A stretch of 64,000 nucleotides of DNA. Origin: Eledone cirrhosa. Taxonomy: Eukaryota. Shown here piece after piece: positions 33,370 through 48,685 of the stretch. The stretch covers positions 137,640,001 through 137,704,000 of the forward strand of contig OZ024742.1 in NCBI GenBank assembly GCA_964016885.1, read 5' to 3'. The position numbers and the translations under genes were made by a program. The notes beneath the pieces are model-generated. The model saw nothing but the letters and a program-made list of their open reading frames with translations, did not search any database and was not told the origin of the DNA. Positions within the stretch are counted from its first letter, which is position 1. Each line of letters begins with the position of its first letter.

Positions 33370-35113
33370 GTAATAATAATAAATTGAAGACTAAAATCCA
33401 AAGAGCGCTCGATAAGGAAAATATATATCAAATATATAAGAACCGTAGAGCAAATATTTATTAAAATAACAGATTAAAGTTTAAGCAAAGAATCGCTGCT
33501 TTCACCCTTAACGGGATCTTCTGAAACTAACAAAGTCAATCTGTAAACGCAGAACTCGATATTTCAAAAAACGTTGCAACCGGAGGAAGACAGGAAGACG
33601 ATACTTTGGTTCGTGGAAACGTTCCCTGGCAAAGAACGGGAAAAAACGAATAATACGTCATTAATAGGAGCGGTGAAAAACAATTACGCGCAAAGACAAA
33701 ACCACGTTTATGGTATAAAAGAGGTCGTAGACTAATGTTCTCTTAGGTGGTGCATAGAGACGTTCTCTGGCAATGAACAAAAAAACGAAGATAATAAGTC
33801 ATATGTGGAGCGTGGAGAACAATAGCACGCAAAGACAAAACCACGTAAATGGTATAGCAGAAATCGTAGACTAAAATTCTAACTAGGAGACCAAATGAAT
33901 CTCCGCTACAGAGTTAAGAACAAAGTAAATAAATACAATACAGAAGTAATAGAAACAAATAAATACATACACGCAAACAGATACGTACATACACAAGCAT
34001 ATGCAAAACCTTACCATGGGTATACAAAACCACGCACATATAAATATGTGTGTGTGTGTATGTTTGTGTCCAGATAAATAAATAATTATATAAACGTATA
34101 TAAGTAAATACATACGTATATAACAAGCGCACACGCATACCTACATATAAATACACGAATGTTCGGAGACGTAAGTCAACTAAAGCAAGAAGTACACATA
34201 TACACACACACCCAATATACGTACGAACCTGCACACTCACGCGGACTCAAAACTCCCGTATACACATAGCCAAACCCTAAATACCAGAATATGTAAAAAT
34301 GATATGCTATAACAGTCAAATATACGTACGAGAAGGTATACATACCTTCACAAAACATACGGGTAATATATACTTACCTATGCAAATAAGTAAAGGAATA
34401 AACAAAACATATACTTAGCTCCCACATCAAGACGTAAAATATCCACGTATAGATCGTGCTATCCGTTAGGGTATAACGTGGGGTTGTAATACAGGAAAGC
34501 TTTGTGCAATTTATGTTTACAAGCCGAAATTGCCTCAGATTTTTTGTTTAAGATGTGGTAAGGTTTTGCGTATGCTTGTGTATGTACGTATCTGTTTGCG
34601 TGTATGTATTTATTTGTTTCTATTATCTCTGTATTGTATTTATTTACTTTGTTCTTAACTCTGTAGCGGAGATTCATTTGGTCTCCTAGTTAGAATTTTA
34701 GACTACGATTTCTGCTATACCATTTACGTGGTTTTGTCTTTGCGTGCTATTGTTCTCCACGCTCCACATATGACTTATTATCTTCGTTTTTTCGTTCATT
34801 GCCAGAGAACGTCTCTATGCACCACCTAAGAGAACATTAGTCTACGACCTCTTTTATACCATAAACGTGGTTTTGTCTTTGCGCGTAATTGTTTTTCACC
34901 GCTCCTATTAATGACGTATTATTCGTTTTTTCCCGTTCTTTGCCAGGGAACGTTTCCACGAACCAAAGTATCGTCTTCCTGTCTTCCTCCGGTTGCAACG
35001 TTTTTTGAAATATCCAGTTCTGCGTTTACAGATTGACTTTGTTAGTTTCAGAAGATCCCGTTAAGGGTGAAAGCAGCGATTCTTTGCTTAAACTTTAATC
35101 TGTTATTTTAATA
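33370..35113. mobile_element. Large fold-back element (about 560-bp arms, 540-bp spacer, 90-nt tail) in (TA)n, hammerhead-bearing
   Basis: About 33459-34015 vs 34556-35113 are near-perfect inverted copies; TA tracts on both sides. Confidence 0.92.
35044..35094 (+). ncRNA. Hammerhead candidate with CAGAAGA (U4A) core; other copies at 33479-33529 (minus) and about 48528-48578 (plus)
   Basis: AGTTT-CAGAAGA-TCCCGTTAAGGGT-GAAA-GCA..TGC-TT-AAACT. Confidence 0.6.
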
Positions 35114-35184
35114 ATATATATATATATATATATATATATATATATATATATATATATATATATATATATATATATATATATATA

Positions 35185-35385
35185 ATACAATATGTAGAGA
35201 AGATAACACACCAGAGAGAGAGAGATAGTGCGCCCTCAGTCAAACAGGGAAAAACCACCAGTGTATGGAATCTTGTGTGTTATCTTCTCTACATATTGAT
35301 TATAAAGGGCTCGGGATTCCTTCTCCTTTGAGCACATTTATGACAGGGAATAGCGAGAGTCTTTGCCTCGTTAATTTATCGTGAT
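35185..35385. repeat. Mini fold-back with tail between TA tracts
   Basis: CAATATGTAGAGAAGATAACACA (35188) / TGTGTTATCTTCTCTACATATTG (35276). Confidence 0.75.
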
Positions 35386-35959
35386 ATATATATATATGTG
35401 TGTGTGTGTGTGTATATATATATATATATGTATGTATGTATGTACATATATTATATATGGGAGAGATGACCCCTTAGCCTTTGTCAAGGCAGAATTCTAG
35501 GAGAAGGAAACCTCTGATATAACACTTGCAACTCTGATGGTATCCAATGATGTTGACTTGTTTTTTTTTGGTAAATATCATCTTGGTTAAGAGAGTGGGA
35601 CTGGCTTTGTGTAGTGCCTTTGCTCACTATAAAACTTCACGGCACAGGTATTGCTTTATATCTGGAGATCTCTCACCACTTGTCGTCACATGGTACCATG
35701 GGCCCAGCATTATGTGTCAATAATTGTCACAAGTGTAGTGTTTGTACCAGAGTTTTCAAGTCGCTGGCTGGACTAAAATGTCACACTCGTTCAGCGCATC
35801 GGTAGGGGTTCTCCTACATGGATATAAAGTAGTGGCCGTACTCGAAATATATAGTCAACATCACACACATAGACAGCCATCCTCACGATAATATATATTA
35901 GTATCATTGCTGCGATAGGAATGGGTCGGGAATTACATATATATGTGTGTCTGTATTGT

Positions 35960-36620
35960 CGACCAACGTGAGGTTTTTAATGCGATGAAATACCAATGAT
36001 CGTTGGCAAATCACTGATGAGGGACTCATTTTATAACATCTAATCCATGTGCAACCATGCAGTATTCTTCTCCCCATATTTTTCATATATTTACCTAAAC
36101 TGCGATTCTGTGTTTCTCTCTTTCTCTCTTACTGCTCCCTCGTTCTCTCTGTTTCTCTTACTTTCTTTCGTCCCCTCTGTCATGTCAGTTAACACTTTCT
36201 CTCTACTGACCTCTTTCTCGCACTTCCACTCACTCTCTCTCTGTTTCTCCCCTTCTTACTTCCTCCCGTCCGCTACGAACCCGATTTTCCTTTTTTCTCA
36301 CATCGGATTCACTAGCGAAAGGTCTGTTCTTACTCGCTCATGTATTCACCCAGCTTATGCTGACAGAATAACCATGTTGCTTGTGTTTCTTTCCATCTTC
36401 GGTTAGCTTTCCCCTGTGTTGTTTACTTGTCTCACTCGCTTTACGCGTTTCAATTGTCCCAATAACTTATTTTAGTTATTGTCGCACCAACGTGAGGTAT
36501 ATGATTTTTAATGCGATGAAATACCAATGATCGTTGGCAAATGACTGATGAGGGACTCATTTTATAACATGTAATCCATGTGCAACCATGCAGTATTCTT
36601 CTCCCCATATTTTTCATATA
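35960..36620 (+). repeat. Direct pair (35960-36090, 36485-36620) of an element end related to the arms at 50609-51155
   Basis: Shared GAAATACCAATGA..GTTGGCA.AT.ACTGATGA followed by a tail ending in (TA)n. Confidence 0.8.
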
Positions 36621-36771
36621 TATATATATATATATATATATAATTTTTTCACGCACACACATATATATATATATACACACACATACACACACATACATAT
36701 ATACATATATATATAAATGTGTGTGTCTGTGTGTATGTGTGTGTATATATACACACACACATATATATATA

Positions 36772-46360: not shown

Positions 46361-47296
46361 TGTATATAAACTTTACCAACATTCTTCTAGTCCCGACTAT
46401 CGATAATTTCGTCGTACTTTATGGATATGTTCAAACCTGGTATTATCCATGAGGTTTCGAGCTTATCGAGAGACTTCCTCAAGAGGACTAAAATTTCTAT
46501 ACATATATATATATATATATATATATATATATATATATATATATATATATATATATATATATGTATATGTATGTATGTACATATTATAACCTATGTTTAT
46601 TGCTCTAGTCTTTTAGACTATGGAGCGCTTGCCAGCATGACTCGGAATTTGCGTTACGTTTCGCTTTTTCTACCCACCGAAATGCGATTCTCGCTGAATT
46701 TATATTGGTATTAATCTCCCGAGTCTTACAATTAACCTGTTAATAATTCTATTGAGAGATTAATGGTTTTAAGTTTATTTTAAAAACTACCCAGATGAGA
46801 GCTTATTCAATTTGTGCTATTTATGCAATTTTTTGCATGGTTTACACATACTGAATTCATTTGCCAAAATCTGGGGGTTTTGCTCTGTGAGTTACACATC
46901 TGCTTTTCCGGAGCACTCAGTCATCCACAATACTGGCGCAGAACAAAATACCTGTTGATAACGTGAAATTACTTGTTCGATCATTATACCAAAAGCTTAT
47001 TGTTTTAAGCAGAAAGTAATATTGATTTAGGTGTCGCAGAAACCCTGTACTGGATTTTACCTTCAATTCCAAGGGTCCAGGTTTGTTATATATATATATA
47101 TATATATATATATATATATATATATATATATATATATATATATATATATATATGGAAAAAATGAAACGTTTCATTTTTTCCATTTATCGGTTTCGGTGCG
47201 CGCGGCCGATTAACTCACAAGATATGCAAATTAGACTGCTCAGCCGTTAATATGCATAAGGAAAGTATATACTTTATGACGTTCAATCATCTGCCA

Positions 47297-47351
47297 GGAA
47301 GGTATACGGTACTGACGATAGTTAATAAGCTTGAAACTAGTACATCGTTCC
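47297..47351 (+). ncRNA. Minimal type I hammerhead
   Basis: GGAA..CGGTA-CTGACGA-TAGTTAATAAGCTT-GAAAC-TA-GTA-CATCG-TTCC. Confidence 0.7.
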
Positions 47352-47714
47352 TTTGTCAGTGTTGAACAAATGAGCAACGATGGTTGCTAAACATTATACG
47401 GCTTAATTCGGGATGTTTGTCTACAAACACACCGAGCAATATAATAAATGTTCGGTGAATCCATACGTACATATATATATGTGTGCATGTATGTACAATT
47501 ATACATACTACTGTACGTCTGTATACATATATGTATGCACGTATATATACTAATATATATATATATAAATATATATATATATATATATATATATATATAT
47601 ATATATATATATATATATATATATATATATATATATATATATATATATATATATATATATAAATATATATATATATATATATATATAGAGAGAGAGAGAG
47701 AGAGAGAGAGAGAG

Positions 47715-47840
47715 GAAGATGAAATCAAAATGCAATAAGACTCCAGTTGCATTTTCGATTTCATCTTTTTTTCTTTATACTTTCACTCGTGTAGGACACC
47801 TCGGTTTTTTTCATTTTGTGAAAAAACCCTCACTTTCTAA
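47715..47840. repeat. Mini fold-back with tail between microsatellites
   Basis: AAGATGAAATCAAAATGCAA / TTGCATTTTCGATTTCATCTT. Confidence 0.65.
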
Positions 47841-48405
47841 TATATATATATATATATATATATATATATATATATATATATATATATATATATATATATA
47901 TATATATATATATATATGTATGTATATATATGATTATGTCATTTATTTTGCCTGACTTGTTTAGCTTGACTTGTTTTTTGGCTTATGTGGTTTATGGCTT
48001 CTTGACCGCCTTCTCAGTTTGTATGGCCTTTATAACCTATCTTTATTGCTCTAGTCTTTTTTAGCCCATGGAGCGCTTGCCAGCATGATTCGGAATTTGC
48101 GTTACGTTTCGCTTTTTCTACCCGCCGAAATGCGTTTCTCGGTGAATTTATATTTATATATATATATATATATATATATAATTATATTTGAGAAAAGTAA
48201 ACACGATAAAGACTGCTTTACCTGTTTGCTTTTATGTCCATGCTGCAATTTCGAAGTGTAATCGCAGATTTGAGCACTGTATATATGTACGTACGTATGT
48301 ATATATGTATATATATATATACTATATATATGTATATATATATATATATATATATATATATATATATATATATATATATATATATATATATATATATATA
48401 TATAT

Positions 48406-48685
48406 TTATTAAAATAACTGATTAAAGTTTAAGCAAAGAATCGCTGCTTTCACCCTTAATGGGATCTTCACAAAGTCAATCTGCAAACGCAGAAATATCC
48501 ACTTCTGCGTTTACAGATTGACTTTGTTAGTTTCAGAAGATCCCGTTAAGGGTGAAAGCAGCGATTCCTTGCTTAACTTTAATCTGCTATTTTAATATTT
48601 GATGTACGGTTCTTATATATTTGATATATATTTATCCTTATCGAGCCCTCTTTGGTTTTTAGTCTTCAAATTTATTATTATTACT
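48406..48685. mobile_element. Short fold-back copy of the 33370-35113 family
   Basis: Arms 48407-48494 and 48503-48597, then the same 90-nt tail as 33370-33456. Confidence 0.9.

Follow-up and report, generated by a model that had tools for sequence, protein, structure and literature searches.

An inverted pseudo-long terminal repeat (pLTR) with a tail at one end is a published feature of Penelope-like elements (PLEs), described in PMC3846280 and PMC8557442, and the latter terms the origin of the tandem and inverted PLE structures unresolved. A PLE protein has been reported to cleave and extend both strands in vitro, with two internal start sites bounding the tail (PMC11167929, 2024), hammerhead motifs of PLEs are described in PMC4209133, where opposite-strand pairs are mentioned, and the Penelope element of D. 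virilis is reported to carry an internal promoter with an initiator (PMC2377424). Here, we analyzed a 64,000-nucleotide stretch of the Eledone cirrhosa genome (3.0 Gb; GenBank assembly GCA_964016885.1, contig OZ024742.1, positions 137,640,001 to 137,704,000, forward strand), referred to below as the window, which holds two insertions, at 33370-35113 and 48406-48685, that are 5'-truncated copies of an abundant PLE, family A. We call the two outer ends, or sites, of these copies the short end (S) and the long end (L), and the stretch between S and L the tail. The lopsided geometry itself is already known, and what is added here is quantitative, namely the near-obligate pairing of L with S in copies made from one template. 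The PLE papers searched contained neither the wording "twin priming" nor a count of L/S pairing; the 2005/2006 reviews and the 2024 supplements lay outside that search, and priority is uncertain.

Results

Ends of the insertions and their pairing

Insertion 1 consists of (TA)n, a minus-strand arm of 1,190 nt, an inverted arm of 558 nt and again (TA)n, and in insertion 2 a tail-less arm of ~89 nt faces a tail-bearing arm, with (TA)n on either side. The parent of both, read from longer copies elsewhere (L094), is a 3,258-nt unit with an open reading frame (ORF) of 708 aa, in which the ATG is at position 45, a hammerhead-like motif at 3099-3149 with its predicted cut after 3144, S at 3166-3173 and L at 3258. 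A preliminary description of the window had noted that the arm lengths of the two insertions are very different (about 560 vs 90 bp) and that each has a 90-nt tail running into (TA)n on one arm, and our measurements bear out both, the tail being 89 nt long. It had also placed the end of the inverted arm at a fixed point about 20 nt from the predicted cleavage site; the site recurs, within a window of ~7 nt and in two main registers, but it lies 24-29 nt 3' of the hammerhead cut placed by eye. The observation that would have overturned that description, a random distribution of end points, was looked for genome-wide by exact pattern matching, the S, tail and L patterns differing from one another so that their counts give no ratio. 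S abutting (TA)n was matched 9,173 times on the forward strand (the reverse-strand count double-counts one variant, and the forward-strand count was used), L abutting (TA)n 12,425 times on both strands, and read-through from L into the 5' untranslated region (UTR) and ORF leader 650 times, with 0 matches for each of the reversed-pattern controls; the ends are not random.

To follow the pairing of these ends, 145 loci of contig 1 (85 from the first 100 ribozyme matches, 45 anchored on S and 15 anchored on the tail) were parsed into 191 insertion groups, comprising 69 inverted L/S, 1 S/S and 0 L/L insertions, 17 inverted insertions with an interrupted or eroded end, 58 single S, 37 single L and 9 others, and L is therefore joined with S in 69 of the 70 uninterrupted inverted insertions. 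The ribozyme-anchored subset, which favors neither end, held 47 L/S, 1 S/S and 0 L/L insertions, with single-arm copies of 29 S and 24 L; an independent choice of ends would lead to L/S in about half of such insertions, as opposed to the 47 of 48 seen. In a separate set anchored on L (41 anchors, 40 loci) there were 20 L/S, 0 L/L, 4 interrupted and 17 copies scored as single, although in five of the latter a very small S arm can be made out by eye. The pairing of one long with one short end is nearly obligate. Flanks differ between insertions. In three further samples that carry this species label, raw restriction-site-associated DNA sequencing (RAD-seq) reads contain (TA)n loose ends at S (2,119-2,746 reads) and at L (550-768 reads) as well as strand-switch joints, so the structures are no assembly artefact.

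Arms and inversion junctions

The two arms were compared in 63 simple insertions, in 35 of which the tail-less S arm extends >10 nt further 5' than the L arm; the L arm consists of tail only in 25 and begins at unit 3162-3182, just 3' of S, in 13. Corresponding figures in the L-anchored set were 13 of 19 for the longer S arm and 12 of 19 for the tail-only L arm. Because an inversion made by fold-back cannot have a tail-less arm that extends beyond the tail-bearing one, fold-back is excluded for insertions with the longer S arm. Overlap between arms, available for 32 insertions and 7,139 nt, revealed 105 non-consensus bases common to both arms, compared with 28.5 between unrelated copies, and 124 differences as opposed to 309. 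This indicates one source locus for both arms, and possibly one molecule.

Most of the 86 inversion junctions are unique, with a few identical ones recurring. Blunt or overlapping joints make up 49 of them, and the mean overlap was 1.94 nt, compared with 0.69 nt in jittered controls (maximum 1.20 in 2,000). A 7-nt self-complementary word at unit 3102-3108 forms the center of 367 exact palindromes. Copies at three loci (L077:2644-2991, L145:6124-6468, L149:4902-5355) leave the pLTR at unit 2948-3016 and resume at unit 111-139, which looks like a switch of the reverse transcriptase (RT) between 3' pLTR and ORF start; these jumps may point to a site of protein binding or to looping of the RNA.

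5' stops and the hammerhead-like motif

The S arms stop preferentially at unit 3093-3108, with 23 of 86 ending there and 1 in the 33 nt upstream (3060-3092), and read depth rises stepwise over the same positions. The modal 5' stops include the A of TTAGTT (unit A3099), a word that resembles the initiator element. Of 13 ends at this position (from 15 rows, two of which were dropped as substitutions in continuing copies), 10 carry an additional G before A3099, and at L285 it is present in both arms; such a G fits the copying of an RNA cap. From these stops we infer that transcription starts at unit A3099 and that the RNA is capped, in which case the RNA 5' end would likely be ~70 nt from S and ~160 nt from L in the mini-copies. 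Both window copies extend upstream of A3099 and stem from longer templates, in which L may be near an RNA 3' end. A second pile-up of 5' ends is located at unit 1-53, just downstream of the upstream L, in near-full-length arms (L077, L081, L110, L114, L120/121, L131, L142, L145 and L200).

The hammerhead-like motif has type I topology by eye and carries A at core position 4 in 188 of 195 arms; in the tail-bearing arm of insertion 1 it begins at the initiator-like TTAGTT and has the core CAGAAGA...GAAA, with A replacing U at that position. The family A ribozyme had no Rfam match among the rows listed (150 of 159), and the hammerhead was absent from lowest-energy folds (z 0.64). Three readings of this region were rejected. 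Ribozyme cleavage does not set the 5' boundary, as 1 of 172 junction ends falls ≤3 nt from the cut; the distance from ribozyme to S is not fixed, being ~24-29 nt in family A and much longer in a third family (C), and because it is family-specific it is probably not mechanistic; and an AATAAA at S is no general signal, as there is none at S in families B and C.

Parent element and further families

By inspection, the 708-aa ORF (L094) contains YRDD and an IVY...YIG endonuclease motif, and its best homolog has PF01541, so that motifs and homolog together give the single ORF with RT and C-terminal GIY-YIG endonuclease of endonuclease-bearing (EN+) PLEs. Partial tandems forming pLTRs, with an adjoining inverted 5'-truncated copy, likewise a feature of EN+ PLEs, are found at L091, L094, L103 and L146-L149, the order at L094 being inverted pLTR, pLTR, ORF, pLTR. 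The tail is one-ended as in EN+ PLEs, at lengths (89 nt in A, 80 in B, 43-44 in C) that exceed the described 30-40 bp. Motifs of the Hydra clade are present as RLRWR at residue 35 and DKT at 115 (in 94 and 119 of the 120 homologs listed), CNCRNRADC, a CxCx5C linker with no CX2-5CxxC, at 566 and CDLC...E...N...CKH at 661 (in 115 and 118 of the 120 listed), and insertion into (TA)n, another property of that clade, is seen as TA on both sides of 55 of the 69 inverted insertions. Judged by its motifs, family A is a Penelope-like element of Hydra-clade type. A 32-mer of its ribozyme motif has 18,554 exact matches genome-wide. A reading of the copies as miniature inverted-repeat transposable elements (MITEs) was rejected, as the arms bear ORF sequence and the ends are asymmetric.

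Two further PLE families behave like family A. Family B (52,348 motif matches, a Hydra-like endonuclease upstream, an 80-nt tail) gave 41 strict L/S, 1 L/L and 0 S/S insertions, with 13 having an end outside tolerance; its tail-less arm is not contained in the tail-bearing arm in 12 of 40, and its 5' ends cluster at TTAGTC. Family C (3,608 matches) has a different RT and endonuclease type and an ORF that begins within the 43-nt tail, and all nine of its facing pairs, read by eye and five of them without a continuity check, are L/S. Its few 5' ends lie ~45 nt upstream of the ribozyme core, a position that suits a transcription start more than the edge of a ribozyme. In each of the three families TA-like bases come after S, in keeping with the AT microhomology that the preliminary description had placed at the short site; L is likewise followed by such bases in A, and by at most 1 nt in C. 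Where family A has its hammerhead, the family B motif (e.g. window 44915-44983) is a hairpin without the canonical GAAA core, possibly a degenerate ribozyme variant.

At L298 (C1:36369062-36369340) and L232, PLE copies lie within TA runs or tails of other PLE copies and so form tail-to-tail clusters. Another multi-copy repeat, with an end that resembles that of a Helitron, carries pieces of the family A pLTR and tail (L067, L068, L196, L197, and the loose ends L094:2461 and 2497). Contigs of a second organism contain about half of the family A words, together with TA loose ends at S and L.

Other features of the window

Positions of the window's repeat features are collected in Table 1. One-sided tails had been listed earlier at seven other places, and we found them at 17.7k, 18.5k, 35.2k, 50.0k, 50.6k and 59.6k, the seventh, at 47.7k, being a weak case read by eye only; further ones, absent from that list, are at 43.9k (80 nt) and 62k. 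A mariner/Tc1-like element at 51175-52072, which served as a control, has symmetric ends (0/0); these are inverted over ~103 nt and lie in TA, and its transposase is broken. Broken ORFs at 29382-31923 (+), 53293-53923 (-) and 9812-10168 (-), with 33-44% identity to the family A protein, are on this sequence evidence further Hydra-like families. The window also contains a 532-aa RT ORF of another PLE type at 14109-15707 (-; weak RVT_1 match), a further family with nested inverted copies at 45160-46100 (hammerhead cores at 45439 and 45715, -), and ~82-nt units in a tandem array at 1416-2034.

Table 1. Features of the two family A insertions and of other asymmetric insertions, in window positions (strand given as. 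where none is assigned)
Feature	Position	Strand	Remarks
(TA)n run at L (tail) end, insertion 1	33302..33369	.	
Tail-bearing arm, insertion 1	33370..34559	-	unit 2071-3258: last 32 ORF codons, 3' UTR, pLTR, tail
89-nt tail between S and L, insertion 1	33370..33458	-	
Hammerhead-like motif, insertion 1 tail-bearing arm	33478..33528	-	pattern scan; topology by eye; no Rfam match
Inversion junction, insertion 1	34556..34559	.	4-nt overlap by BLAST
Tail-less inverted arm, insertion 1	34556..35113	+	unit 2611 to S; 98.8% identity to other arm
Hammerhead-like motif, insertion 1 tail-less arm	35044..35094	+	A35044 is unit A3099, the putative transcription start
Short site S (TTATTTTAATA) abutting (TA)n, insertion 1	35103..35113	+	
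(TA)n run at short end, insertion 1	35114..35184	.	
Tail-less arm, insertion 2	48406..48494	-	unit 3073-3173; ribozyme core damaged
Tail-bearing arm, insertion 2	48492..48684	+	unit 3062-3258
Family C PLE palindrome	18526..18969	.	44-nt tail on left
Family B PLE inverted insertion	43911..45060	.	80-nt tail on right
Family B mini-palindrome	61891..62067	.	tail on left
Asymmetric palindrome, family uncharacterised	17720..18103	.	35-nt tail; short end joins (CT)n
Asymmetric palindrome, family uncharacterised	35185..35383	.	85-nt tail
Asymmetric mini-palindrome, weak case	47714..47839	.	~22-nt arm; by eye, automatic measure failed
Asymmetric palindrome, family uncharacterised	49942..50543	.	~70-nt tail
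Asymmetric inverted insertion, family uncharacterised	50609..51155	.	47-nt tail
Inverted insertion	59623..60277	.	71-nt tail; hammerhead 59930-60001 (Rfam HH9, E 3e-6, below gathering score)

Discussion

The best fit to the L/S pairing, the shared template, the exclusion of fold-back in most cases and the microhomology at the junctions is that priming occurs twice, at fixed sites and from opposite target strands, as first proposed in the preliminary description. We consider it probable that the copies arise by twin priming in which a single RNA is primed at two fixed sites, with stalling or displacement at S and joining of the cDNA 3' ends. The copies have the head-to-head inversion with junction microhomology that defines twin priming, and their arms trace to one locus and presumably to one molecule. 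What is seen in them are the fixed ends, the pairing, the shared variants, the microhomology, the read-through past L and the pile-up at TTAGTT, and every enzymatic step below is our reconstruction. Each of the two cut strands of a (TA)n target would serve as primer for reverse transcription of a shared RNA, one strand starting from L and its partner from S, ~89 nt upstream, and an asymmetric protein dimer on that RNA would make the two primers use different sites. The L-primed cDNA would stall near S, leaving tail-only arms (about 40%), or would displace the S-primed cDNA and continue; the two cDNA 3' ends would then pair over 0-6 nt, or be linked through filler, and each would prime second-strand synthesis on the other, which would leave the two cDNAs joined head to head. 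Copies primed on the 5' pLTR would run off the capped RNA start at A3099 and give mini-palindromes of ~230 nt, and single-arm copies would result if one priming fails or stays very short. A tentative extension, to which we attach slightly more doubt than belief, is that such twin priming is the normal, programmed route of PLE integration, with one asymmetrically held RNA and two hard-wired sites, one per target strand. If this were true, the inverted pLTR, the one-sided tail and the ribozyme-sized mini-palindromes would all result from one and the same reaction, which would be conserved in no fewer than two PLE lineages.

A number of points weigh against this account. All of its steps are read from dead copies, and about half of the copies (95 of 191) were scored as single-armed. 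The L arm runs past S in 38 of the 63 simple insertions, and either strand displacement or a second RNA would be required to produce such overlapping arms; the variants shared by the arms could also be explained by two RNAs of one locus or by conversion between arms. Inserted or unmatched letters occur at 37 of the 86 junctions, and the extra G is known from a small number of ends, two of the 10 being explicable by the other arm. Exceptions to the pairing exist, with one S/S and one interrupted L/L (L215) in family A and one L/L in family B, and the sample rows include a few duplicates (L086/L087, L080/L137) or passengers in another repeat. A target-site duplication would be hidden inside (TA)n, and no empty site was found for the 69 insertions among the examined loci. 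Pfam and PDB sequence searches with the 708-aa ORF gave no match, and the clade placement comes from motifs, not from a tree. In the accessible text of the in vitro study (PMC11167929), moreover, both strands shared the start sites with no apparent strand difference, and a coupling of strand to site finds no support there.

The overlapping arms (38 of 63), and the two L285 arms that both reach A3099 with an extra G, would require no strand displacement if each subunit of an asymmetric complex primed at its own site on a separate RNA, both RNAs coming from one locus, and the shared variants would fit as well if few loci are active per cell. Taken alone, however, two RNAs leave both the L-arm pile-up just 3' of S (13 of 63) and the fixed division of L and S between the subunits unexplained, and we regard this variant as unlikely. 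The preliminary description had assigned one primer to the true RNA 3' end, at L (formed by read-through (UA)n or by cleavage), and the other to S by AT microhomology. This is in line with the microhomology at S in A, B and C, as opposed to at most 1 nt at L in C, with ~95% of L sites ending in (TA)n (12,425 vs 650, counts of different patterns), and with the copy at 33.4k, which comes from a 3' pLTR, as it contains the ORF end, so that L may there be near the end of the RNA. Yet the element is continued past L across a precise junction, a ~160-nt RNA ending at L would be needed to make the mini-copies that have cap-like 5' ends, and internal initiation is reported in vitro for another PLE (PMC11167929), all of which makes this reading improbable. 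Twin priming at fixed sites is the part of the earlier interpretation that is supported; a primer at the RNA 3' end is not the general rule, given 650 read-throughs past L, and may hold for the two window copies.

Self-priming or fold-back, by a hairpin on an antisense template or cDNA with the tail produced by endonuclease resolution, is suggested in PMC3846280 and PMC8557442. The 367 perfect palindrome centers, the 14 of 63 insertions that are near-symmetric at the center and the 14 with a longer L arm would suit it, but the containment that it requires fails in 35 of 63, 13 of 19 and, for family B, 12 of 40 insertions, and 25 of 63 arm pairs scarcely overlap; it is excluded as a general route and very improbable as the explanation here, and it could act in the symmetric minority. 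That the insertions are copies of a few master palindromes, or assembly artefacts, is hardly credible and is refuted as a general explanation, for although a few identical junctions recur and some fragments ride another repeat (loose ends 2461, 2497), most of the 86 junctions are unique, flanks differ, and raw short reads of other samples contain both ends and strand-switch joints.

Across the tens of thousands of copies in this genome, the "optional tail" turns into a rule of one long and one short end. For annotation, this carries the warning that the short palindromes of these families are retroelement products and not MITEs. Twin priming on one RNA also makes two predictions for the in vitro PLE system, a coupling of strand and site on single targets and the derivation of both arms from a single RNA. 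Because telomerase and the PLE RTs are sister groups, programmed two-site initiation would be of wider interest.

Among known systems, the L1 twin priming that Ostertag and Kazazian are said to have set out in 2001 reportedly has its first primer at the poly(A) and its second at variable internal sites, gives mostly non-overlapping arms and is a minority outcome. Family A departs from this L1 type, with its first primer at the poly(A) or 3' end and its second variable, in that both ends are fixed, the element continues past L and there is no poly(A), arms often overlap by hundreds of bases, and inversion affects about half of the copies. Common to both are the head-to-head inversion, outer ends that are both 3' ends of RNA copies, and junction microhomology (bioRxiv 10.1101/2024.12.14.628481, in the text available). 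Canonical PLE insertions (PMC3846280, PMC8557442) share the partial tandem, the inverted 5'-truncated copy and the one-end tail, as at L094; in the sections available, the tail is described as optional or "often at only one end" and the inversion is attributed to self-priming or left open, whereas here L/S pairs were counted. With the Hydra clade as described by Craig et al. 2021 (PMC8557442), family A shares a single ORF, RW[K/R], DKT, the CxCx5C linker, CxxC and CxH around E and N, (TA)n targets and a hammerhead-like pLTR motif; it differs in length (3.26 kb, as opposed to generally <3 kb), in having RWR for RWK, in its tail of 89 nt in place of 30-40, in the A4 of its ribozyme and in its tens of thousands of copies. 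In PAc Poseidon in vitro (Frangieh et al. 2024, PMC11167929), the two start sites are not linked, in the available text, to an inverted repeat, and the tail lies in the ORF start, like that of family C, whereas family A has its tail in the 5' UTR, with 44 nt between it and the ATG. The same system cuts and extends both target strands without need of ribozyme cleavage and, like family A, has two internal starts that bound the tail and an AT-rich target.

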